34,130 nt of DNA, from assembly GCA_027053075.1 (NCBI GenBank), contig JALUEE010000084.1:1-34130 (forward strand), written 5' to 3'. Origin of the DNA: a candidate division WOR-3 bacterium (GTDB lineage: Bacteria > Hydrothermota > Hydrothermia > B15-G9 > WFZT01). The notes beneath the pieces were generated by a model. That model was not told the DNA's origin. It searched no databases and worked only from the letters and a program-made list of their open reading frames with translations. Shown one piece after another: positions 16,057 through 33,793 of the stretch (position 1 is its first letter; each line of letters opens with the position of its first letter). The position numbers were made by a program, and so were the translations under genes.

Positions 16057-16542
16057 CTAATTACTCACCCTTCGTAAGAAATTCAAAAGATCTTTGAGGA
16101 GATTAGGCAAATTGTTCCAATCTATAAGTTCGTTCACAATATACCGTATGAAAGCACCGTCATCGCTGTACTTATAATCATTTTGAATTTCCTTAAATGT
16201 AGACTTGGGATTATTAAACTCGTAACCAAGCCAAGATAGCAAAAATCCTTCACAATTATTGGGAGTTAGCACAAGTGTATAATTTCCCCACAAAAGTTGA
16301 GTTGCAATGTTTTTAATTTTTGGCAAATCGATTTTTACTCTGTCCTCATCAACAATAATTAATTCACCATTAAAAAATATGCTTCTGTCATCTTGAAGTC
16401 TTACTTGTTCTTCTAATTTCGGCAAAACATTCCCCTTACTAATAAGTTTTTCAGTACGAATCCGAATCCCCGTTTTTTGTAAAATTGCCTCAATTAGAAC
16501 AATATGGCACTTGTCTTCTCCAAGTATTTTTACACTTTTCAA
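16057..16542 (-). CDS. Small TOPRIM-like protein (DUF4276/DUF3226/RloB-like), putative nuclease
   Basis: Strand plus Glu (ILGEDK), DxD after a hydrophobic strand (LIIVDED), NCEGFLL, NPKSTF. TTG start overlaps the ATPase stop (TTGA); GAGGAG SD. Confidence 0.55.
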   Translation of the reverse strand: MKSVKILGEDKCHIVLIEAILQKTGIRIRTEKLISKGNVLPKLEEQVRLQDDRSIFFNGELIIVDEDRVKIDLPKIKNIATQLLWGNYTLVLTPNNCEGFLLSWLGYEFNNPKSTFKEIQNDYKYSDDGAFIRYIVNELIDWNNLPNLLKDLLNFLRRVSN

Positions 16543-17831
16543 ATTAACTCCTCAACTTTCTTTGCATATTCAGGAAATTCTTTTATAATTGCCCCCTCAC
16601 CTGTGTCCTGGACAAGCCACCAATACTCTCTGGGGACAGATTCCGAAATCATTGGAGAATGAGTGGCAAGGATTATCTGAATCCTGTCATCTTTAGCTTC
16701 ATTTACAAGATTTTCAATCCACCAAGCGAGTCTCCCAGGGTGAAAGCCATTTTCAGGTTCGTCTATTGCAATAATCGAGGGTTGTTCAGGCAAATTTAAA
16801 AAGGATAGATACGCAAGAATGCGCAGTGTTCCATCTGAAACAGTTGCAGCAGGATGTAACCCTTTGTTGTCTTTTATTAGCAGTTTCACATTATGGATTC
16901 CTTCCAGCTCGTAAAGTTGTAGTTGAATATCCTCAACTTCGCTAACATAAACCTGAAGGCTATATAAAATCTTCTTGAATTTTTCAGGATGTGAATTCTT
17001 AAGCCACCACAAGAAGGAAGGCAGGTTCTGGCCATCTTCCTGTAATTCTTTTTTATAACGCTGTGATGGTGATTTAAGGACATCAATGTTAAGCTTAAGA
17101 ATTTTTATGCCTTTCCAAATATCCATCCAATCATTGTAGTTCCCTTGATAGCTAACCATTTCTTCTGCCTGCTGATAAAATGTATATTTATCTTCTTTGT
17201 CATAAGTGCCGCTACCAAGGGTTATCCATTTACCATCTTTGGTCCAATGCAATGACATATAACCTTTGAATTCATGATTTCCATTTTGGGTGAAATTTAC
17301 CTCTATTTCAATTTTATCACATCCCGTGGACACAATTGCAGCAGGATTTGTGGCATATCGATTGATTTCCTCAAGAAAGGCTTCTGGGTTCCCGATATGA
17401 GCAAGTTTTATCAATTTGAGAGCCTCAAGAATCGCAGTTTTCCCTGATGCATTAGCACCAAATATTGCGTTAAATTTTTTTACATCCTTCCATTCAAAGT
17501 TTATAAGATTTTTATAGCCCCTAACTTTTATGTTGTTGAGGCGCCAGATTTTTGGCCTTGTTTCGAGAAAATTCATTAATTCATGCTTCCATTCAGGAAG
17601 CATGAGATTGGTAAATTCAAAAAGCTGAGGGTTCTTAAAGTTTTTGGGTAATTTCCCGAAGGCTTCATCAACAAAACTTGTGGTCAGGACTTCAATACCT
17701 TCGAGATCTAAACAAATTTTTTTATCCCCTTTCTTTAAGATTTCAACAACTTTTCGGTTTAAAAGTTTACCTTTATCTCTTGTATTGGCAAATGGACTTT
17801 TTATTATCTCTTTAACCTTGATGACCTTCAT
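16539..17831 (-). CDS. Fusion: STAS-like (DUF4325) domain plus AAA_21/AAA_15-type ABC ATPase
   Basis: aa 1-90: TRDKGKLL..LDLEGIEVLTTSFVDEAFGKL. Then IKVRGYKNL, Walker A GANASGKT, signature VSDGTLR, Walker B/D-loop IDEPENGFHP, H-loop ATHSP. Confidence 0.85.
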   Translation of the reverse strand: MKVIKVKEIIKSPFANTRDKGKLLNRKVVEILKKGDKKICLDLEGIEVLTTSFVDEAFGKLPKNFKNPQLFEFTNLMLPEWKHELMNFLETRPKIWRLNNIKVRGYKNLINFEWKDVKKFNAIFGANASGKTAILEALKLIKLAHIGNPEAFLEEINRYATNPAAIVSTGCDKIEIEVNFTQNGNHEFKGYMSLHWTKDGKWITLGSGTYDKEDKYTFYQQAEEMVSYQGNYNDWMDIWKGIKILKLNIDVLKSPSQRYKKELQEDGQNLPSFLWWLKNSHPEKFKKILYSLQVYVSEVEDIQLQLYELEGIHNVKLLIKDNKGLHPAATVSDGTLRILAYLSFLNLPEQPSIIAIDEPENGFHPGRLAWWIENLVNEAKDDRIQIILATHSPMISESVPREYWWLVQDTGEGAIIKEFPEYAKKVEELI

Positions 17832-17832
17832 T

Positions 17833-18624
17833 TTAAGCCCTCTTAAAAAAGAATCCTGTGCTTGTTCCTTTCCAGTATCCTTTCACCTTACCAGCAGTCT
17901 CAGCCCACGGATACGCCATGTAAAACCCATTGCCAGACCATAGCCAGAAGTTACCACCCATTTCTGTTGCAAAAGTCTTAACTCTCCATAATCCATTACC
18001 GCTGAACCTCTTTTTATCTCTTGTAACTCCTCTCTTAGCAGCCAATTGAACAGCAATAGAATCAAAAGGGACATGATAATCCTTATTTTGCGATAGACTC
18101 TCCCTTATACCAATTCCTCTGTCGCTTATGGCAACTTCTATGTTGGTTCTGTATTTTTGAGCCATTGCCACACACCATGACGATTCACCTGCATGAATTA
18201 ACACATTTTCGAGTAGTTCAGATGTGGCTTCTAATATGTTTACCAGCGTGCTTTTTTCGATTTCATTTTCAAACACTACTTTCAAATTTTTCATAAATTT
18301 ATCCATGTCTTCTTTCGATTTTATCAGAGAAAGTTCTACAAATCTACCTTCCGGAGGATTCCGCCTTTGCTGAAAGTTAAACTCAATTCCTGAAATTTTG
18401 TCAAAGTTCATTCGTTTCAGGTAACCCAAAAGTTCACTACTTTGTGGCAAAATTACTTTAGGCTTATGTTCTCTTTTCTCATAGAGAAAGGTGGCCAGTG
18501 GAACAAGTGCTGAAGGGTATATAAAGTGCACATCTCTAATATTGATTTCCTTTATTAATCCCAGATTAAAATGGGCTAAGACAAGGTCTTCAATCCTTAA
18601 ATCACCTGAAAAAACCAATTTCAT
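17833..18624 (-). CDS. GHKL/HATPase_c protein, RsbW/SpoIIAB-like Ser kinase type, with degenerate STAS-like N-terminus
   Basis: N box SELLENVLIHA, G1 ISDRGIGI, G2 SGNGL, terminal WKGT. N-terminal VHFIYPSALVPL..YLKRMNF. No TM segments or DHp helix pair. Confidence 0.82.
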   Translation of the reverse strand: MKLVFSGDLRIEDLVLAHFNLGLIKEINIRDVHFIYPSALVPLATFLYEKREHKPKVILPQSSELLGYLKRMNFDKISGIEFNFQQRRNPPEGRFVELSLIKSKEDMDKFMKNLKVVFENEIEKSTLVNILEATSELLENVLIHAGESSWCVAMAQKYRTNIEVAISDRGIGIRESLSQNKDYHVPFDSIAVQLAAKRGVTRDKKRFSGNGLWRVKTFATEMGGNFWLWSGNGFYMAYPWAETAGKVKGYWKGTSTGFFFKRA

Positions 18625-18797: not shown

Positions 18798-20177
18798 ATG
18801 AAGAAAATTCTACTCGCAGAAGATGATTTGAAGATGGAAAAGTTGTATTCCGGAGCCCTTAAGTCTCTGGGGTACGAAGTAATCCCGGTGAGAACCCTGA
18901 AAGAACTTAAAAAACTATCACGGGATAAATATTCACTTGTACTTCTAAACAGGAATTTTGACGGCGCACACACGGATGAACTTCTCAAAAAAGGTGAGCT
19001 ACAATTCGAATCTCCTGTCGTCCTGATCTCAGCAATGACAGATGCAGAAAGAGCGGCCGAGCTCATAGAAAAAGGCCTCATCCTTGACTTCTGGCACAAA
19101 GCTGAGGGACCCGAAGGACTGGTACTCGAGGTCAAAAAGATAGAGCGCGAAGTTAAGGATATTCGCCCGCAGCTAATGGAATTTTACAACGGTATATTTG
19201 ACCTACCTCATATGAGTAGACGGCCTGTTAAGAGGAAAATCATCGCCTATTCCCCAAACATGGTAGACGTTCTGAGGAAAGCCATCGGATTCGCAAAGAG
19301 TAAGAATCTCAACGTTCTCATTGTAGGAGAACCGGGCACGGGCAGAAGCGCTCTCGCTGACTATCTTGTTGAACAAATGGAGGGCAAACCAGAAACCATC
19401 AAAATCCCGCCGGGACAGTGGGGGATGCTTTCCGAAATAGAAGAGACACGTATTAAAGTAGGCTATGGCCAGGAAGCTGAAAAGACCGAGGAAATAGTTG
19501 TCATTATTGATGGAATTGAAGAAATGCCACGTGACGAGCAGGTTTACATCCTGGGGCTTGCTAAAGAGGGTGTCGCAAGGTTTGTTAGCATTGCCAGCAC
19601 TAACATCTTCAGAAAACTTAAAGAAGGCTCATTTTCACAGGAGCTTTATCAATACATATCCGGTGGACTTCTCATGATTCCTCCCCTCAGGGAGAGATTG
19701 AAAGAAGAAATAGCCCTTCTTATTGAGCATTTTCTGCGCCTTGAGGAGCATGAGAGGAAGCTAAAATTGGGATTGTCGGAAGAGGCTTACAGGATTCTCA
19801 CGTCTTATCCGTGGCCCGGCAATGTGGTAGAATTGAGACTAAAGCTCAAGAGTTCAATTGCCACACTGTTACCCGGAAGGAATATTATTCAATCCATCAA
19901 TCTTCCACAGGAGATAATGCAGTTTGTCCAGCAGGGCAACGATGTTGTATTCAACAAGTTTCTTCAGAGTTTCATAACTTCCATTGACTACGCAAGTATC
20001 AGCTATGATCAGATCGAGAAATGGGCCTTTAACTTGAAGTATACTCTTTTAAAACTCATCATCGAACAGGCGGGATACAATTTGGAGCTTGTGAAAAAGT
20101 TTTTGAAGACCAACAAAAATATCGAAAAAGACGAGGTAGTGGCGAAAATTCTTGCGGAGAAAGATGAGAAAAGATAG
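18798..20177 (+). CDS. Degenerate NtrC/PilR-like regulator (receiver plus sigma54-activator-like AAA domain)
   Basis: KKILLAEDD receiver, NVLIVGEPGTGRS, IPPLRER, SYPWPGNVVEL. Key catalytic residues are substituted. Confidence 0.8.
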   Translation: MKKILLAEDDLKMEKLYSGALKSLGYEVIPVRTLKELKKLSRDKYSLVLLNRNFDGAHTDELLKKGELQFESPVVLISAMTDAERAAELIEKGLILDFWHKAEGPEGLVLEVKKIEREVKDIRPQLMEFYNGIFDLPHMSRRPVKRKIIAYSPNMVDVLRKAIGFAKSKNLNVLIVGEPGTGRSALADYLVEQMEGKPETIKIPPGQWGMLSEIEETRIKVGYGQEAEKTEEIVVIIDGIEEMPRDEQVYILGLAKEGVARFVSIASTNIFRKLKEGSFSQELYQYISGGLLMIPPLRERLKEEIALLIEHFLRLEEHERKLKLGLSEEAYRILTSYPWPGNVVELRLKLKSSIATLLPGRNIIQSINLPQEIMQFVQQGNDVVFNKFLQSFITSIDYASISYDQIEKWAFNLKYTLLKLIIEQAGYNLELVKKFLKTNKNIEKDEVVAKILAEKDEKR

Positions 20178-24575: not shown

Positions 24576-26189
24576 CTACCATCTTTTCGAGATTCTCATT
24601 GTGGCATAGAGTTCCTTTGAGACACTGGTGGAGCTGATCTTTGTCAATGTCGTCTGAAAGCTAAAATTAAACTTATATGGAAGTGAAACGTAGAGATTGA
24701 AATTACCAGAAATAGACCTGACACCAGCCCCATTAGTGTAATTTACACCTGCCCCTGGTTTAAACTTCCCGGCTGTGTATGAAAGGTTTAGTCCCGCGTT
24801 TTGCTGGCTCTGTTTGCCCATAACTGTCTCGAAATTGCTATGGCCCAATGTGGCCGTAAAGCTCAATGGAAATGGAAAAGAAAAAGTCTCACTCAACGAC
24901 AATGTGTAGAATTTTGAGGAGTTGTGTAAAGTATCAGGAAGGTTGGACGATTGATAGCTAATCGTTAGCTGGCTCGTTATGCTCGTTGAGCCCAGATATT
25001 TTGAATAACCGATATTTGCCCCCACCAGTAGTGTAGTGTTCTCCGAAATGCTTTTCTGCTCGCTGTTATTAACGTAAAGCGTGAAATAAGGAAGACTATA
25101 AGATATGAAGCTCACATCAACATGGGTGGTTTTAAGCTCTGTTGTTACCTCCTTTGTCTGGAGTAGATTATCATGCTCCTCATGATAGGAAACCCCCAAT
25201 CCGAGTCTATTATGCCAAATCCGCGTTCGCGTTTCTATGGTGTACTTGAGGAGGTCTTTTCTCGTGGAGTACAAACCAAATGAGACGAAGCCTGGGCCAA
25301 TCATCGTAGCCCTGAGCTTCACCTGTGTTGCCCCTGTTTTAAAACTCGCTGTCCCTCGCGCAGCATAGTCAACATGGGTTGAGACACGAGGCTTAAACTT
25401 TTTCTCCGCCCAGTCAGGAATTCTATCATCGTGAACAAGCGGAGCGGTAACATCGCTCGTCAATTCACTAACTGCCACCTCTCCCCTTATATTCATCCTT
25501 CCTTTATAAGTGAATCCAAAGTCTGTTCCTAAAATGAAGTTTTCCATGGGCGCAACGGAGAGTGTGGATTCGACAACATTGGTATCTGGCTGAAAATATG
25601 TAAAAGGTGGGTTAATTGAAAGGGTATCATCCCACGAGTGCATGAAAGTCAGGTGAAAATGGGTGGCACTCTTCTTGCCAATCCCGACGCTGATCCCTCG
25701 TATTGCTCTCTTATACTGCGCGTTCAAAGAGTCGGTTCTGTATGCTGGACTGATTGCTCCACCGGTGTAAGAGAAATAAAAAACTCCCAGTGTGTATTTG
25801 ATTGTTAATCCCCTCACCCGAATTCCAGATATGGTGAACTGGGAAAACACAGGGAAGGCATCTCCAATGGTGATTCCCGGAAAAGACAGCAGGAAATTCG
25901 GAATCCCCGGAATAGCGGGAATCAGCCTCTGGGGACTGAATTTCATTGCGAATTGGTTTAGCCACTCTTTTAGTCTTTCTTTTGCGCTACCGATTGAAAA
26001 ATGAAAGAAAACTGGCATTCCATAGATATAAAATTGGGGTGAAAAATTCAATCGGAATGTTCTCACGGGAGTGGTTTTTGAGCTATCGAACAGGGTATCC
26101 ACCACAAACTGAACTTCAAAGTACCCGGATGTTTTAAAAGGGCCTTTGCCAACGGTACTTATTAAAAGCAGCAATATGGGCAGTTTCAT
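24576..26189 (-). CDS. Putative outer membrane beta-barrel protein
   Basis: Signal-like N-terminus, alternating amphipathic strands, C-terminal YATMRISKRW ending in an aromatic residue. Confidence 0.7.
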   Translation of the reverse strand: MKLPILLLLISTVGKGPFKTSGYFEVQFVVDTLFDSSKTTPVRTFRLNFSPQFYIYGMPVFFHFSIGSAKERLKEWLNQFAMKFSPQRLIPAIPGIPNFLLSFPGITIGDAFPVFSQFTISGIRVRGLTIKYTLGVFYFSYTGGAISPAYRTDSLNAQYKRAIRGISVGIGKKSATHFHLTFMHSWDDTLSINPPFTYFQPDTNVVESTLSVAPMENFILGTDFGFTYKGRMNIRGEVAVSELTSDVTAPLVHDDRIPDWAEKKFKPRVSTHVDYAARGTASFKTGATQVKLRATMIGPGFVSFGLYSTRKDLLKYTIETRTRIWHNRLGLGVSYHEEHDNLLQTKEVTTELKTTHVDVSFISYSLPYFTLYVNNSEQKSISENTTLLVGANIGYSKYLGSTSITSQLTISYQSSNLPDTLHNSSKFYTLSLSETFSFPFPLSFTATLGHSNFETVMGKQSQQNAGLNLSYTAGKFKPGAGVNYTNGAGVRSISGNFNLYVSLPYKFNFSFQTTLTKISSTSVSKELYATMRISKRW

Positions 26190-26199
26190 TTAAAGTCTC

Positions 26200-28413
26200 C
26201 TATGGGAGTTTCCCACTTTTTGCCGCTGAAGGAACGGACCTGTTGCCACTTTTGTGCAGTGCCTGGACTTTGTACCAGTAGGTTTTGCCCTTTGTTATAA
26301 GCTTATCTTTAAAATGGTCTGACCTTATTAGCGGACTTATTTGAATATAACCTGTGGTTGGATTTTCGCTTCTAAAGACCAAAAATCCAAGAAGGGTAGA
26401 ATCGTAAGCCGGGGTCCACCAGATGATAAGGCCATCTGATGCCGGTGTTACACGTCTTATGTGTGACCTTGTCGGAAATTTGAAGCTAAAAGTAAATGTC
26501 CCCACACTGGCAGAAGGAGTGCTGACATTCCCACCAACATCCGCACATCTCACCCGATAAAAGTAGTGTTCTTTCGGTTTTGCTGTTGTATCAAGAAATG
26601 AGAAAATGGTGTCCTGATCCCAGATTGTGATAGAGGGAAGACTTTCGCATTCCACAGTTGTTGGAAATTTTAATTTTTTGCTCAGTGTATCCCAGACTGT
26701 AGTATCTGATGTATCCGCTCTCTCCACGATGAATCCAAAGAGGTCCTGAACCGGAGGTGCAACCCATTGAACAAGTATAGCTCCGTCCCTTGCCTTTAAT
26801 CCAACAATTAGCGGCGGTGGCGGGGCGACTCTTTCTCTCAACCTCTCACAAACGGTTTTCGAGGTATCGCTCAAATTCTGGCTGTTATCATAAGCTTTGA
26901 CAGTATATCGGTAGCATACAGGTGATCCGGATGGAACCGTTCTATCAATAAAGGATGTCGAGTCCTCATTATCTACAGTCCCCACAAGATGCATGGAATA
27001 AATCATACGTATTTTTTCTCTCAATAATGTGTCTCCACAAATTCCACGGTAAATCAGGTATCCTGCGACATCAGGAGTGGATACCTTTCTCCACTCGAGA
27101 GCAATACTATTGGTGCGGCCGTGTGCTCGTAAGTTTGTTGGTGGCGGAGGTGGTGTTTTATCCTTTATCACTCCTCCAACGTGGGCACTCAGGTTACTTT
27201 CATTTCCCCAGTTGTCTATGGTCTTTATCCTGTAGAAGTACCCTTTGTCTTGATATGGAGAACCGAGTCCGTGGGTTGTATCTTTGTACGAGACGTTCAG
27301 GATCGTAGTATCGGTTGGCTGAGGGACCAATGAGGTTACGAGTGTGCCTATTGTGTCGTCAATTGAAGTGTACCTGTAAATTTTATAGCCTTTAATTCCG
27401 GAGATATCTATGTGGCCATCGTAGTCTTTTAATACCTTTTCCCATGTTATGTTAAGGCTGTCTCCAATGGCGGCCACGTGGATACTGGTAGGGCTTCGGG
27501 GAGCTGTAGAATCGTAAGAAGTACCCGATACCGTTATACTCGGTGGACTGAAACGACCTGAAATATCGAATGCCTTAACCCTATAGACATAAGTTGTGCC
27601 CGGGAATGGCCCTTTAAAGTGGACTCCATTTACAACATTATTGCTGGGCTTTGATCGATACCAGTACATCTGGTCCAGGAAACAGAGTTTCGTAGTATCT
27701 GAAAGGGTATCACCAGATGGACCAACCACACATTTGGACATTGTTGTCGGAAAATTAATTCGGATGAAAGTCCCTGTTCCTGCCTTTTTGCGCTCGACTA
27801 TATAACCCGAGGCACCAGTGACTGGCCTCCATCTTATCATTATCGAGGCGTTTCCAGGGATAAGCTCAACTCCAGCGGGTCGTGCAGGCGGTGTTATATT
27901 TCCTGCTACCACTGAAGTCTGGCATAATATCTCTGTTTCCACCCCTGAAGAATCGATACCTCTTAATGCGTAAAAATATCGCGTACCGTTTACGACAGAG
28001 GAATCAATAAACCCCTGTCCAATAGCAATGGCTATATAGATTTTCTGGAATGCGGCAGCTTTGACAGCGTATCTTCGTCGGTCCCTTTTGGACGCCATAA
28101 TTTGGGGTATGTCACACATTTCAGGTACAACCGACCATAAGCGCCTATACGCGGAAGAATCCTTGTGTAAGAAGTTACGAAAACTTGTACAGTCCTCTAT
28201 TATCCTTATGGTATCGTCATTCACCCTAATGAAATCTGTCCCAGATGTCCTTCGGTACAGGTTGTATCCGGGGTAGTAATCTGAAGTGTTCCAGATAATG
28301 AGTATGCGATTTGTGTCTGGAACAGCGACAATTACGTTGTGTTCCTGTGCCATTAGCCTCAATGGGCTTACAAACAAAAGTATTCCAATAAATGCAATGA
28401 TTTTTTTATTCAA
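26200..28413 (-). CDS. Exported multi-fibronectin type III protein (about 6 repeats)
   Basis: Repeated PPxxP..W..GYxIYR..D..YxYRVxAxDxxGNxS. TTG 28413 gives the signal peptide MNKKIIAFIGILLF and overlaps the upstream stop. Confidence 0.85.
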   Translation of the reverse strand: MNKKIIAFIGILLFVSPLRLMAQEHNVIVAVPDTNRILIIWNTSDYYPGYNLYRRTSGTDFIRVNDDTIRIIEDCTSFRNFLHKDSSAYRRLWSVVPEMCDIPQIMASKRDRRRYAVKAAAFQKIYIAIAIGQGFIDSSVVNGTRYFYALRGIDSSGVETEILCQTSVVAGNITPPARPAGVELIPGNASIMIRWRPVTGASGYIVERKKAGTGTFIRINFPTTMSKCVVGPSGDTLSDTTKLCFLDQMYWYRSKPSNNVVNGVHFKGPFPGTTYVYRVKAFDISGRFSPPSITVSGTSYDSTAPRSPTSIHVAAIGDSLNITWEKVLKDYDGHIDISGIKGYKIYRYTSIDDTIGTLVTSLVPQPTDTTILNVSYKDTTHGLGSPYQDKGYFYRIKTIDNWGNESNLSAHVGGVIKDKTPPPPPTNLRAHGRTNSIALEWRKVSTPDVAGYLIYRGICGDTLLREKIRMIYSMHLVGTVDNEDSTSFIDRTVPSGSPVCYRYTVKAYDNSQNLSDTSKTVCERLRERVAPPPPLIVGLKARDGAILVQWVAPPVQDLFGFIVERADTSDTTVWDTLSKKLKFPTTVECESLPSITIWDQDTIFSFLDTTAKPKEHYFYRVRCADVGGNVSTPSASVGTFTFSFKFPTRSHIRRVTPASDGLIIWWTPAYDSTLLGFLVFRSENPTTGYIQISPLIRSDHFKDKLITKGKTYWYKVQALHKSGNRSVPSAAKSGKLP

Positions 28414-31400
28414 GATAGAACCCCCTTGTTGAACTGATTCCAAAATTCAGGTCTGCACTTGCACAGAGCAACTCAAGCACGCATCCTCTGAGAGTAAGAG
28501 AACCTGATATGGCAAACGGACACGGTCCCAGAAACTCTGCCTCGGCCGAGCCGGAGGCTGAAACGACTCCCCAGAGAATTTTACCACCAAGGTATATTCC
28601 AAAATCACCGATTACGTAAGGAAGCAAAGAGCCACTACAGGCACTTGCACCGGCAGGGCCATTGACCATAGCCCCGAGGCCAAAGAAAAGCTCCATCTCT
28701 CCTGAGAAAATTCCAAGATCGAGCGAATACTGGCGATCAAGAAATGCGTAAAATCCAGTGAGGGTTGCAGGAAGATTTCTCATATCAATCCCAAATCTTC
28801 CCGTTTTGTTCTTTAAGACCCATGCTCTTTCCTGTGGAACATTTACACCCATAAAGAATCCCCCACTGATGCCCATTCCTGCTCCACTCATGCCCATTGA
28901 AAATCCGAACTTGATCTCTGCATCACCCTGAATAAACGAGTAAGTGCCCCCGGCCCTGAAGGTAAAATGTCCCTTTGCTGAAGCATTACTCGTAAATGCA
29001 AGTGGAATTCCGCCGCCCAGGTTAAACAGTCCCTCAATATCTCCTTCAAACCAGTGCTCCTGTCGGTTATTGGTGAACTTCGCATAAGCTTCTACCTCTA
29101 TGCCAGCAATGTGCTTGAAAATGAATTTGCCCTGGACAGTGAACTTTGATATGGTGGGAGTGATAGAAAGTGTCATTCGAGCGGCAAGTCCTGTCCTTGT
29201 GGTAAAAAATCCGTTTGCCGAAGGTGATACCATCCCTCCGATTACCAGTCTTTTGAGTGAGTCTCCTTCGATGTACGCGCATCCCCAGAGGTCCTTCACA
29301 TTGGCAAGGTCCATGTAAGCAGTTCCCACACCTTTATTGGAGGTCTCGGTCACACAGATAGCCGAGTAAGCACTATCTATCTTCACCGACGCTTTCGCAT
29401 CTGAGCCGTTAAGATACCAGACTCCCTCGATTTTCCCGGTGCCCTGAAATGCGTACTGATTGATGGTGTCATAATACACAGTATCGAAGTCGAATGTTGC
29501 TGTGTTATGTCCCCAATCTCTCTTGAGGCCGAAAGTTTTCGGGTCTTTGATATAGACAAATCTTCCGTAGTAGGGATTTGACGTGGAATCAAATTTGTGA
29601 TCAAAAATAGTGATTGCAGTGTCCGCTTCACCGAAGAATTTAAAATGCATCTGAGACCGTACTACGAGAGCTCCGTACCTTGGACCTCTGGCAGTGGAGT
29701 CGTATCTCGATAGGGCAGCCGAGTCCAGAGTGATCGGGAATCCATCGAACTTTTGAAAGGCTGAATTTTTGTTGAAATACAATTTCCCAACACGACCATC
29801 AGCGAGAAATTCGCCCCATTGGAGGTTAAAGGGACGGGAAAAGTGTCTGTTTTCTGAAATATCGGCATCGGTAAAAACCACCTCACCCTGATGAGCACTC
29901 ACATAGCCTGACCTTGATGTAATTTTCACACCCCAATAATCGAGCTCCTGTGGAGTGGAGAATCTCACCTCACCACCTACTATATAACCCAAGGATGTGA
30001 TTCCCATTTTTATGAAGGGAAATTCGATGCTGCTGGGACGCGGCACTTTTTTGATCTTTCCATCCATTCGAGCGTCAAAAACAGAATTCCCGGCAAATCT
30101 TATGAAAAATCTACTCGTATCCTTTGGTGAACCTTTGATTTCTACGTCAAAATACTTGGATGCAAGATATCCTGCTTCACCAATACGTCCCATCTTCTTT
30201 CGGATAACAGTCATGCTTTCCCGAAGCTCAAAGTTTGCAGTCACTCCTTGCTCGTCCAGGATTACCCAGGCTCTCAAATTTCCGCAGGGTATCTTTGCCC
30301 TTCTTCCCTTTAAGTCTGGTGAGATAATGCTGAGAGTGTCCCTGTGCCTGCCTCCGGGCTTGATAACCATTCCTACAAAGGTGTCGAGAGCCGTAGAGCT
30401 CGGATTGATGAGTGAATCACCGCTAATTAGAGAGAAGTATCGTCTTGGTGGTGCTGTAAATCGAAACTTTACTTCACCTTCGTGAATGAGGACGAATTGT
30501 CCCCAGAAAATGCGAGTCTTGCTTATGTGTCCTGTTGCAGTTAACGTCAGATTGGAATCTACCGTTATGTTGTGGGATGTCACATCAAGACTATCTGTGG
30601 CAGAGGCAACCATGATTCCATTCTCGCCTGCAGGAACACGGATGCGTCCTGCGAAGTTACCTGAATCAACTCTGCATCTGGTAATTTTTAGCGTGCCTGT
30701 TTGTGCCTTGATACTGAAGCCATAAGGAGCGACCGTCCTGAAATTCATCGGTTGACTGAGATGGAGATCAACACTCAGACCTGAGTCGCTCAAGGTTGCA
30801 TTTGAAAACGTATATCTTCCATAAAGAAATCCTGTATTTGAGACCAGCAACGCATTTCTCTTGATAGTATAACCACTGTCAAATTTTATTCCCGTCCAGG
30901 CAAAAAGAGCAGGTGGGATAAAAATATGCCCGCCAGGAGGTTTGATTCCATGTGGGGGCAGTGTGCCTCCACCTCCGTGTGGTGCTGCTCCACCACCTGA
31001 GAAAGTTTTTATGGTGATATCACCCACCGGCTTTATGAATATGTCGTAAGTACCCAGTCTAAAAGGTGCCACTGATGACCCTGAAACAATCTTGTAAAAA
31101 CCACCGAGGGTATCAATGGATGTGGTAAAGGGGCCGAGCTGCCAGAAATCGGGTGAGCCCGTGTCGTGCAGACAGGGATGAGTCACAAAAAGTGTAGCTT
31201 TTGACGAATCGGGCCAGAGCATCACCTGCGTAACATGAAGCTTCATTCCTGACCTTGAAAATACGATCGGATGACCTGGAGTGACAGTAATTTGCCCTGT
31301 GTCTATAAACGCTGTATCTCCAAGGGAGCTGTCCGAGTGAAGATGAGTGAATGTAAGATTGAACCATACCCTGGAGCCAGAAGATTCATCTTTGAAGAAG

Positions 31401-32308
31401 GATCTTCCGCTTCCTGAAAGCGAAGATAAAGAAGAACCGGTGGAATAAGATGACACTCTCACGAGGAAATTACCGATTTTGAGATAATTCGGGAGCAAGA
31501 CTATCATGTGAAACCTCGGTATCACGGTGAATTTTCTTATCTCGCTTTTTCCGTTGTTCTCACCTATAGGATTGCCTCTCACATCAATTGCCTGTACCTG
31601 CCAGATGTAGTTATGATTAACGTGCAACGCTGTGTATCTTCGAGAGTAAATGAAGTTCGTAGCTGGTGTGACTTCAGATAAAACCGGCCGCCTTGAAGTT
31701 GCCGTATTGAAGTCCTCACCTGGAAACAATTCCCAGATCTTTATTCTGTACCTTACAGAAACACCAGGTGGCACCGTTACTGGAGTCCATCTAAAAACGA
31801 GTCCAAATAACATGACACTATCCTGATCCTCTGGATGGACCAGTTGAGGTGGTGAGGGTGCAACAATCAAAAATCTCGCGCAGGTATGCGCAAGTGATGG
31901 ACCTCCAGAGGCAGGAATTACATCAACACAAACTCTGTATTCACCCTCGGGAATATTTCCTGTTCGCCGTATTCTCTCTGCCATAATAGAACTGTAACTT
32001 ACAGAGGACCAGTCAACCAACTCTGTATTTGTAATAAACATTGTTTGTCCGGGAGAAAATTCGAGGACGCGACTCCTGCCCTGAAGAATGACCCCATGCC
32101 TCGTCTGGGTCAGAGTGGCATTAAGGTAAACTCTGACTCTCTCTGTTCCTGTGTAGGTTATTCTGAGTGCAACAATGTTTGGTATGGTGCGCCACTGGTT
32201 TATCTGCTGTGGTGGCCTTGGTAAAACATTTAAGGTCACTCTCCAGAATGGCGAGGCATTAAGGGATGAAGAAAAGACAATTGCAAGCACTAAAAGAATT
32301 TTTTTCAT
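28406..32308 (-). CDS. 1300-aa exported beta-rich protein with TANFOR-like/FN3 N-terminus
   Basis: Signal peptide ending SLNA; GNIPEGEYRVCV..C..PPQLVHP..FRWTP..YIWQVQA..NGKSEIRKF, recalled as the TANFOR-protein pattern; long Gly/aromatic beta-strand body; GGAGG SD. Confidence 0.7.
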   Translation of the reverse strand: MKKILLVLAIVFSSSLNASPFWRVTLNVLPRPPQQINQWRTIPNIVALRITYTGTERVRVYLNATLTQTRHGVILQGRSRVLEFSPGQTMFITNTELVDWSSVSYSSIMAERIRRTGNIPEGEYRVCVDVIPASGGPSLAHTCARFLIVAPSPPQLVHPEDQDSVMLFGLVFRWTPVTVPPGVSVRYRIKIWELFPGEDFNTATSRRPVLSEVTPATNFIYSRRYTALHVNHNYIWQVQAIDVRGNPIGENNGKSEIRKFTVIPRFHMIVLLPNYLKIGNFLVRVSSYSTGSSLSSLSGSGRSFFKDESSGSRVWFNLTFTHLHSDSSLGDTAFIDTGQITVTPGHPIVFSRSGMKLHVTQVMLWPDSSKATLFVTHPCLHDTGSPDFWQLGPFTTSIDTLGGFYKIVSGSSVAPFRLGTYDIFIKPVGDITIKTFSGGGAAPHGGGGTLPPHGIKPPGGHIFIPPALFAWTGIKFDSGYTIKRNALLVSNTGFLYGRYTFSNATLSDSGLSVDLHLSQPMNFRTVAPYGFSIKAQTGTLKITRCRVDSGNFAGRIRVPAGENGIMVASATDSLDVTSHNITVDSNLTLTATGHISKTRIFWGQFVLIHEGEVKFRFTAPPRRYFSLISGDSLINPSSTALDTFVGMVIKPGGRHRDTLSIISPDLKGRRAKIPCGNLRAWVILDEQGVTANFELRESMTVIRKKMGRIGEAGYLASKYFDVEIKGSPKDTSRFFIRFAGNSVFDARMDGKIKKVPRPSSIEFPFIKMGITSLGYIVGGEVRFSTPQELDYWGVKITSRSGYVSAHQGEVVFTDADISENRHFSRPFNLQWGEFLADGRVGKLYFNKNSAFQKFDGFPITLDSAALSRYDSTARGPRYGALVVRSQMHFKFFGEADTAITIFDHKFDSTSNPYYGRFVYIKDPKTFGLKRDWGHNTATFDFDTVYYDTINQYAFQGTGKIEGVWYLNGSDAKASVKIDSAYSAICVTETSNKGVGTAYMDLANVKDLWGCAYIEGDSLKRLVIGGMVSPSANGFFTTRTGLAARMTLSITPTISKFTVQGKFIFKHIAGIEVEAYAKFTNNRQEHWFEGDIEGLFNLGGGIPLAFTSNASAKGHFTFRAGGTYSFIQGDAEIKFGFSMGMSGAGMGISGGFFMGVNVPQERAWVLKNKTGRFGIDMRNLPATLTGFYAFLDRQYSLDLGIFSGEMELFFGLGAMVNGPAGASACSGSLLPYVIGDFGIYLGGKILWGVVSASGSAEAEFLGPCPFAISGSLTLRGCVLELLCASADLNFGISSTRGFYLE

Positions 32309-32317
32309 TGTGACCTC

Positions 32318-33793
32318 CTACCTGTTTCTTGAGAAGCTGAATAAAGCCCCGTCCCAGGATATAGGGGCAAGAACCACATACTGCTTGCCAGATAACAGGG
32401 ATTTTCTGGTCTCGATGAGTTCACTTTCACCGGAGGTGTATTTAATGAAATTTACCGTTACATCCTGCGGAAATTCGCTCATCAGGGTAACGGCCTCACC
32501 TTTTTCATCAAAGGTAGCTGCAAATTTTTCATTCTGACCAAGTTGGATGGGGGAGATTTTGAATGAATTTATATCGTCTCTATCAAAGATGTGATGGAGT
32601 GTAAGTCTTGCATAAACTGAGGAATTTTCAGAATTAAGTTCGACCATCTGGTAAGGGGAACCTAATCCGTTGACGGTCAACGAAAATGTTCCTCCGCCAG
32701 ATTCAGCTTCTAATTCGATGGCATGGTCTCCATCTGAGGAAACAAGGTACAGGGAGTCTTTTGCAGGCTTTATTGTGAATGTAAAATTGTGATTGTTGCC
32801 TCCTTGTATGATAAGCATATCCCCACCAGCATTATCACCGTTTATCGGCAGCCATCTGACGATAGCCGTACCATTCTTTTCAACAAAAAGATCATTTGGC
32901 CCAAGCGTGAGACCAGTGGTGTTATCAGTAACTTCCACGATGCGCCCTTTGTTCATAAAGAAAGTGGTAACGAGAGAAGCAAGGTCTGAGAGTAACAGAG
33001 GATTAGATGTGGGAAGAAGTACTCTTCTTGCTGGCACAGTGTATATAAATCCTTCAAAACGCTTTACTGGTGTCGTAGGCCAATCATAATGCCAGGAATC
33101 AACAAACGCATTTATGCTCACATAATTGCTATCATTGTCATAATAGCTTTTTGTTGAGAAATAAGGAAACGATGGGTCATAGACGTAAAGTAGCCATTCA
33201 TGGGCATGCTTGATGAGTTTGTATGGATAGATCGCGTGCATGCCGCCAAACCCACCTGGAGATGATGATTCACTAATGCAAACAACAGGTATTTCCTGCG
33301 AGGATAAATAGTAATCAGCCTTTTCCGCTGCCATCTGTGGGTCTGTGAAATAATGGTGAGATATAGCTTCAACTATTATACGAAGAACTTCAGTGGAATA
33401 TTGTCTTGCATAGAGAACCATTATTGCACGCTTCATCTGTGGCCAGTAGGCACCGAGTGTGTCCATTCCAGGTGCTGTATTATTTGGGGTGTACATTGAT
33501 AGCGGCGAGCACATCCCCATATAACCGCCCTCATCATAGACCACACCAGCGAGTGCGCTCATACCAAAGCAGACACCTCCTGTTGAATGGGACCTTATGA
33601 TGTTGTACAAAGAATTATCGAGGGGATTTGACGGCTGGACACCTATAAAGGCCTCTTCGAAATAATCCCAGGTCATTTCGAGTCCATAGTTATCAACGGG
33701 TAGTCCATGACGAGCAGGGAAGTTATCCTGTGAGGGGAGAATGTTTATAAACAACAGCATCCCCATTAATACCAACAACCAAGGCGATCGCAT
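32318..33793 (-). CDS. Exported papain/transglutaminase-fold thiol peptidase-like protein
   Basis: Signal peptide; candidate triad GGVCFGMS / HAIYPY / YVYDPSFP; beta-rich C-terminal half; GAGGAGG SD. Confidence 0.65.
   Translation of the reverse strand: MRSPWLLVLMGMLLFINILPSQDNFPARHGLPVDNYGLEMTWDYFEEAFIGVQPSNPLDNSLYNIIRSHSTGGVCFGMSALAGVVYDEGGYMGMCSPLSMYTPNNTAPGMDTLGAYWPQMKRAIMVLYARQYSTEVLRIIVEAISHHYFTDPQMAAEKADYYLSSQEIPVVCISESSSPGGFGGMHAIYPYKLIKHAHEWLLYVYDPSFPYFSTKSYYDNDSNYVSINAFVDSWHYDWPTTPVKRFEGFIYTVPARRVLLPTSNPLLLSDLASLVTTFFMNKGRIVEVTDNTTGLTLGPNDLFVEKNGTAIVRWLPINGDNAGGDMLIIQGGNNHNFTFTIKPAKDSLYLVSSDGDHAIELEAESGGGTFSLTVNGLGSPYQMVELNSENSSVYARLTLHHIFDRDDINSFKISPIQLGQNEKFAATFDEKGEAVTLMSEFPQDVTVNFIKYTSGESELIETRKSLLSGKQYVVLAPISWDGALFSFSRNR

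Follow-up and report, generated by a model that had tools for sequence, protein, structure and literature searches.

The window analysed here, a stretch of 34,130 nucleotides from a candidate division WOR-3 bacterium that seems to originate from hydrothermal vents, carries on its minus strand a gene in which a DUF4325 STAS domain is fused in frame to an ABC ATPase. The fusion is real and is not an assembly slip. It is the middle gene of a three-gene cassette (16057..18624, minus strand), recognized as an accessory locus by GC content and genome comparison, with the order kinase, fusion and TOPRIM-like gene. As a whole, it is about an even chance that the cassette works as a switch, in which the kinase phosphorylates Ser52 of the fused STAS domain, probably on ssDNA, and the predicted TOPRIM partner of the ATPase is switched on, likely in a stress or anti-phage response. 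The switching of effectors by a kinase and a STAS protein is already published for CapK/CapS and VapK/VapS/VapC (PMC13373217). No description was found of the output seen here: the predicted switch sits on a HEC-01/AbiL/PARIS-like ATPase of the ATPase-TOPRIM kind.

The fusion gene (16539..17831, minus strand) was defined by ORF translation and Pfam. The frame from 17831 to 16539 contains no stop and is translated into 430 amino acids. DUF4325 (PF14213) was matched at amino acids 24-75 (E 8.5e-11, 41.9 bits against a cut-off of 23), and AAA_21 was matched on the C-terminal part (E 2.1e-25, 90.8 bits against a cut-off of 27). The earlier note, made from the letters alone, had described a DUF4325/STAS domain running in frame into an ABC ATPase, and this is borne out by the open frame and the two Pfam domains. 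The ATPase starts at about amino acid 96, and the alignment of the three full-length orthologues shows no Met near this point that is common to all three.

A joining of two genes by an assembly error, or by the loss of a stop codon in this strain alone, was weighed as the artefactual explanation, and its chance is negligible. In its favor, the window itself is backed by a contig of run X1, possibly the sample from which it came; this single contig covers 15000-18788 with 0 differences. However, the same fusion was found in two other species, on one metagenome contig and on strain contigs from two separate studies. The 430-aa fusion is present in genome G001, of the same genus as the window (47% identity), and in G009, of the same order and another family (44%). 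At the metagenome locus L060, the fusion is present and runs off the end of the contig. One contig each of runs X4 and X6, which belong to these two studies, spans 17443-17900, with 24 and 21 substitutions, respectively, and no gaps. At the 21 listed places of variation, which leave 3 differences per contig outside the list, 18 codons were altered, 11 of them non-synonymously; none became a stop, and amino acids 50-56 were untouched. The stop or frameshift between the domains that the earlier note wanted sought is absent across the junction in the contigs of X1, X4 and X6, all of which are assembled contigs and not raw reads. Because independent genomes carry the fusion, the artefactual explanation is already refuted.

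The STAS domain (amino acids 1-90; 17562..17831, minus strand) was identified by Pfam, profile search and modeling as a homologue of the STAS domains of VapS and CapS. The model, built from 84 sequences, has a pLDDT of 91, and the best 13 folds among 48,161 chains searched by VIA-align were without exception entries for STAS domains, RsbV and SpoIIAA among them. These 13 matches have Z of 5.4-6.8 and rmsd of 2.6-4.3 over about 80 residues, where a Z below 8 can mean a common fold. The STAS fold proposed earlier for the N-terminus is supported by this model. No match was returned by Foldseek with the same model at E <= 0.001, and nothing significant was found in the PDB by phmmer with the single domain. 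With STAS profiles that include the query, a single PDB sequence out of 177,635 was significant, VapS of Escherichia (9z7o_A), with E values of 6.7e-11 and 1e-10.

Amino acids 41-59 of the fusion read LDLEGIEVLTTSFVDEAFG. Ser52 is encoded by AGT at 17676..17678 (minus strand), and its reading from 17678 to 17676, as first noted, is confirmed by the translation. It opens the helix 51-59 (helix 2) of the model, and its proposed place as phosphoacceptor gains support from this position and from its conservation. Among 58 aligned domains, position 52 is Ser in 33, Gly in 20 and Ala or Pro in 5. The 33 Ser carriers are 4 orthologues of the fusion (4/4), 8 phage or plasmid proteins that had trained the profile, L058, P0019 and 19 kinase-DUF4325 fusions. 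All 19 of these kinase-DUF4325 fusions, which were chosen by kinase similarity alone among 149 relatives, carry Ser52. In twenty single-chain HATPase-DUF4325 proteins, mostly led by an HTH, this position is Gly. Proteins with this Gly are the most frequent DUF4325 type in the phylum, and phosphorylation at position 52 would not take place in them. The Gly form also occurs in the window's own genome (G000), where the second DUF4325 gene (L002:1429-2523, contig C27) encodes a 364-aa HTH-HATPase-DUF4325 single chain with Gly at the Ser52 position.

Thr51 (17679..17681, minus strand) was identified by alignment as an alternative candidate acceptor. It is present in three of the four orthologues and is Met in G001. 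In a gapless alignment, VapS Ser48 falls on Thr51, one position before Ser52. Five VapS-like proteins, two of which precede PIN genes, have Ser or Thr at 51 and Ala or Pro at 52. CapS Ser54 aligns with Ser52, and both stand directly before a Phe (by eye, Appendix Table S2 of PMC13373217). From these alignments, Ser52 is the better phosphoacceptor candidate.

The gene directly upstream (17833..18624, minus strand) encodes a VapK/CapK-like kinase of 263 amino acids with an N-terminal STAS-like domain and a GHKL (HATPase_c) domain, as found by Pfam and hhalign. Its stop codon is followed after 1 base by the ATG of the fusion. HATPase_c was matched with E 2.8e-6, and the kinase motifs are E136, N140, H144, D168-x-G170-x-G172 and G209-x-G211. 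E136, N140, H144, D168 and G170 are invariant in 149/149 relatives. Pfam returned neither a histidine-acceptor domain nor an HTH for this protein, which starts with the STAS-like domain. Comparison with four VapK-like proteins of the phylum by hhalign gave a probability of 97.4% and E 1.6e-11 over 215 columns. The earlier suggestion that the fused STAS domain is paired with an adjacent kinase thus holds, the upstream gene being an anti-sigma-type GHKL kinase and a VapK homologue. The kinase profile collected 2,548 clusters at E <= 0.001 and 1 at 1e-30, so the orthologous kinase clade is tiny. No orthologue was found among 72 candidate stretches of viral contigs.

The same kinase could also be read as a classical anti-sigma factor, with the fused STAS domain as its antagonist and transcription as the output. 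The fold of the STAS domain is like SpoIIAA and RsbV, and a weak SpoIIAB match of the kinase (E 0.006, far below the cut-off) would agree with this; SpoIIAB/SpoIIAA and RsbW/RsbV likewise pair a GHKL serine kinase with a substrate of STAS fold. However, the cassette kinase is much more similar to CapK/VapK, whose additional N-terminal STAS-like domain it shares, the domain that it would phosphorylate is joined to an enzyme, and no sigma factor was seen in the cassette when the ORF list was read by eye. Partner switching of this kind is very improbable.

A trigger by ssDNA is modestly favored from the kinase sequence. F34 is a candidate ssDNA-stacking residue; position 34 is F, W or Y in 122/149 relatives, and F34 aligns with the Phe that was mapped by eye to VapK F54. 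This mapping uses Table S2, where the VapK sequence as printed lags the numbering of the paper by five; with this offset, F54 falls by eye in the F34-aligned motif, and VapK K180/K181 fall beside K157/R159 of the kinase. In the part of PMC13373217 that was available, phosphorylation of CapS Ser54 by CapK is ssDNA-dependent, and phage protection by VapKSC needs VapS Ser48 and VapK F54. Two observations count on the other side. The available part of that paper holds no biochemical demonstration of VapK activation by ssDNA, which counts against an ssDNA trigger here, and the position of CapK W68 is Arg10 in the cassette kinase, not an aromatic residue (by eye), which counts against the proposed switch.

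The ABC ATPase domain (amino acids 96-430; 16542..17546, minus strand) was classified by Pfam and PADLOC as HEC-01A/AbiLi/AriA/MAD3-like. Its Walker A (17436-17459), signature SDGT (16827-16838) and Walker B DE (16758-16763), all on the minus strand, are invariant in 3/3 full-length orthologues, as are the D-loop and H-loop. The best PADLOC matches were HEC-01A (E 4.8e-37), then AriA and AbiLi. MAD3 was matched with E 4e-29, but at 102 bits against a cut-off of 420. A full-length model of the fusion, built on 3 sequences, was of low quality (pLDDT 52) and was used for coarse fold matches only; these gave Rad50/PtuA-like folds for the ATPase.

The third gene (16057..16542, minus strand) encodes a TOPRIM-like putative nuclease of 161 amino acids, assigned by orthologue matches and conserved residues, and its TTG start overlaps the ATPase stop. 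Residues E9, D65-x-D67 and E98, a candidate E and DxD metal site of a TOPRIM protein, are invariant in 3/3 orthologues. The window's own protein has no match in Pfam, PADLOC or the PDB. Its orthologues have weak PADLOC matches to AbiLii (E 2.7e-4) and HEC-01B (E 0.002-0.03), and the atlas search with the protein leads to RloB and DUF4276 clusters. From this sequence evidence, the product is likely a TOPRIM protein. No PIN match was found in the third gene, and the true VapC-like genes of the phylum do match PIN.

In HEC-01, AbiL, PARIS (AriA/AriB) and MADS MAD3-type pairs, a small TOPRIM-like gene comes after an ABC ATPase gene, and the cassette shares this arrangement. It differs from the HEC-01/AbiL type in that its TOPRIM-like partner matches weakly and through orthologues only. 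For ABC ATPase-TOPRIM systems, the sensing of phage is otherwise ascribed to the ATPase. In the available part of its description, HEC-01 is an ABC ATPase and TOPRIM pair that gave no phage protection when tested (10.1101/2024.01.29.577857). A defence role of the cassette is somewhat favored.

The closest arrangement to the cassette as a whole is that of VapKSC (Chambers et al., EMBO J 2026, PMC13373217; VapS structure PDB 9Z7O). Both have the order kinase, STAS and nuclease effector, the nuclease being predicted here. In both, the gene immediately before the STAS gene encodes a kinase with STAS and GHKL domains and no HTH. Both also have a STAS domain of VapS homology (E 6.7e-11), an aromatic residue at the VapK F54 position and a post-translational output, which for the cassette is itself predicted. 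The effector differs, being an ABC ATPase with a TOPRIM-like protein in the cassette, whereas VapC is a PIN RNase. The cassette STAS domain runs into a 335-aa ATPase and has no inhibitory C-terminal helix, whereas VapS is a stand-alone antitoxin with such a helix. The hydroxyl residue also stands one position later in the cassette, with x-S-F-x-D-E against S/T-x-F-x-N. CapK/CapS (PDB 9Z71-9Z73, PMC13373217) resembles the cassette in another way: a GHKL kinase lies directly upstream of a STAS domain that is carried on the output domain, and the Ser is on STAS helix 2, Ser52 being in the register of CapS Ser54 (position only, by eye). Unlike this system, the cassette kinase has no HTH, its STAS protein has no wHTH, and the output domain is an ABC ATPase. 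The lack of an HTH on the kinase and of a wHTH on the STAS protein indicates that there is no transcriptional repression in the cassette.

In the preferred reading, the kinase would sense ssDNA from damage or infection and would then phosphorylate Ser52. On the analogy of CapS and VapS, the face of unphosphorylated Ser52 would be buried in a STAS-STAS, STAS-ATPase or STAS-TOPRIM interface that holds the complex shut. Phospho-Ser52 would break this interface, by the same analogy, and the ATPase-TOPRIM complex would open. The released predicted nuclease would then arrest the cell. Phosphorylation of Ser52 by the upstream kinase is, by sequence homology, highly probable as a prediction. That this phosphorylation controls the ATPase-TOPRIM complex is fairly probable.

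If there is such control, phosphorylation is likely to activate rather than inhibit. The opposite sign was weighed, in which the kinase, by keeping Ser52 phosphorylated, would restrain a toxic ATPase-TOPRIM complex that is freed when the kinase is lost or inhibited during infection. A regulator-first, effector-last layout with tightly coupled genes fits an antitoxin kinase equally well, and no sequence feature gives the sign of the control. However, both characterized relatives, CapK/CapS and VapKSC, release their output on phosphorylation, as given in the available part of PMC13373217. The kinase also keeps an aromatic residue that matches the VapK site needed for protection, and the opposite sign requires phosphate removal or protein turnover. 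This inverted polarity is distinctly improbable.

The distribution of the cassette bears on whether the ATPase is controlled at all. The order kinase, fusion and TOPRIM-like gene is common to G000, G001 and G009. The full fusion was found in 3/272 genomes of the phylum, the window's own included, and the third gene in 4/272. The fusion is confined to one order. The GC content of the cassette is 36.5% against 43.9% for the genome, and 9/892 same-sized genome windows are as low. In G004, the flanks match at 94-95% identity, and the site of the cassette holds two unrelated ORFs. The cassette is absent beside the copy of the left flank in G001, and the cassette neighbours differ in G009 and G007. 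The cassette is probably a mobile accessory element of one order. G007 holds a decayed copy (L203:7383-8543) with a frameshifted C-terminal half of the ATPase and an intact TOPRIM-like frame, in which the kinase and the STAS domain are missing. No convincing operator or terminal repeat was seen at the cassette, and matches to promoters and terminators were about as many as expected by chance (8 against 9.6 and 2 against 2.0, respectively).

Outside the cassette, positions 18798-20177 of the window encode a sigma-54-type response regulator whose receiver domain is below the cut-off; at its expected phosphoacceptor Asp it has Asn (by eye), and the G001 orthologue has Asp. Four large proteins of 537, 747, 1300 and 491 amino acids, all apparently secreted, are encoded one after another at positions 24576-33793 (minus strand).

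Searches for other fused forms gave little. A word-index search returned only the query among 165 candidates, and another, with 7,990 candidates, returned 6 other proteins, each of which carries DUF4325 annotation together with HATPase, HTH or both families; both searches are weak evidence of absence. An atlas search with amino acids 1-150 of the fusion returned ATPase fragments only, under 0.9. No plasmid match was found for the STAS domain alone.

The fusion could also be a passenger arrangement. An autonomous kinase-STAS pair would have landed before a HEC-01-like ATPase-TOPRIM pair, and a stop codon would have been lost once; the kinase may still phosphorylate Ser52, without effect on the ATPase. 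The best argument for this is that the fusion is limited to one order, and because of this confinement (3/272 genomes), all orthologues may stem from one event. Kinase-STAS pairs commonly occur without an effector, the decayed copy of G007 lacks kinase and STAS, and 21 other related ABC ATPase loci of the phylum have no STAS or kinase within about 1.5 kb. The last observation also enters the best argument against, together with the conservation of the STAS part, which is nearly that of the ATPase (38-45% against 47-48% identity among orthologues). Moreover, the fusion is kept at 430 amino acids with a short linker despite divergence to 44-47% identity and different genomic sites, and no unfused version of its clade was found in the 272 genomes. 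A fusion without control of the ATPase is on balance unlikely.

The earlier note had also suggested that kinase-DUF4325 pairs are general switches for adjacent effectors. The switch idea stands, with CapK/CapS and VapKSC (PMC13373217) as examples; the word general is too strong, for most sampled pairs have no adjacent effector. Ser-containing DUF4325 motifs were scanned, and at least 133 loci were found, at least 119 from genomes and 14 viral. From the loci listed, 6 without a host ORF and 4 that were not STAS were removed, and 123 were left. The scan motif carries a bias and would miss the fusion gene of the window itself. None of these 123 listed loci extends more than 110 amino acids past the motif. 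Among those listed, 85 have long flanks: in 44 a kinase precedes the STAS domain in the same chain, in 21 a kinase gene of its own precedes it, and in 20 no kinase was detected. A matching ABC ATPase downstream was found in 0/85 of these long-flank loci, and none lies directly downstream of 9 phage or plasmid kinase loci. After one duplicate among 29 downstream genes of the listed loci was dropped, 28 were scanned by Pfam; 2/28 are defence-type, 15/28 are housekeeping or phage genes and 11/28 have no match. The pair can therefore stand alone, with most sampled pairs lacking an effector, and the fusion could be incidental.

The kinase-DUF4325 module was also observed on other enzymes. In P0086, it is fused to DISARM DrmA, and the protein spans the 1,750-position PADLOC profile with Ser at position 52; it is a single sequence in its cluster. 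This DrmA variant (PADLOC profile PDLC02567) is like the cassette in that a kinase-DUF4325 module is joined to a defence NTPase. It differs in that kinase, STAS and helicase form one chain, whereas in the cassette the kinase has a gene of its own and an ABC ATPase is the NTPase. No discussion of the DrmA-linked module was found in the literature searched. P0121 is a putative fusion of kinase-DUF4325 to a DEAD/MZB helicase and P0123 a putative fusion to pPIWI_RE Y and REase domains; both have Ser at 52 and are the lone members of their clusters.

A wider reading is put forward tentatively. The cassette may show a third way in which the ssDNA-sensing kinase-STAS switch delivers its output, with a phospho-switch acting in cis on a defence NTPase and the ABC ATPase-TOPRIM pair firing on DNA damage via one serine. 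The DrmA, DEAD helicase and pPIWI_RE nuclease chains would be further cases, and the module would be a portable activation tag for immune enzymes. If true, the CapK/VapK switch extends from repressors and antitoxins to direct enzyme control, one fusion gives an ABC ATPase-nuclease defence pair a new trigger, and Ser52 is a single-residue handle for turning the complex on and off. Such a handle could make the activation of HEC-01/AbiL-like systems testable, HEC-01 having been inactive when tested without a known trigger. The importance is limited by the published concept of the switch and by the rarity of the fusion.

The kinase, STAS-ABC ATPase and TOPRIM architecture was not described in the literature searched, subscription papers and the ABC ATPase classification being outside its reach, and no paper combining STAS with TOPRIM, ABC ATPase and phage was found by the literature search. 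DUF4325 is linked to PIN genes in the available parts of earlier literature. The words 'ABC', 'TOPRIM' and 'fusion' are absent from the main text of PMC13373217, and 'ABC' and 'TOPRIM' are absent from 13 of its 14 supplements, file 14 being outside the search. In the same 13 supplements, HEC-01 comes up solely as lying near 2 vapKSC loci, at a distance of up to 10 kb.

Related loci were observed in other genomes. Intact vapKSC-like operons with kinase, STAS and PIN genes are present in two other genomes of the phylum (L043:867-2642 and L054:571-2300). Two VapS-like genes have surroundings with a type III restriction-modification look (by eye) and no PIN gene seen, one with a methylase tail upstream (L047:1393-3191) and one with a helicase-like gene downstream (L053:152-1909). 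Two-gene kinase-STAS pairs with no obvious effector were found in phage genomes (L038:3399-4538, L039:3396-4585, L040:3300-4653 and L037:3381-4594). Three of these four phage pairs lie near integrase genes, and the pairs may represent a prophage accessory module.
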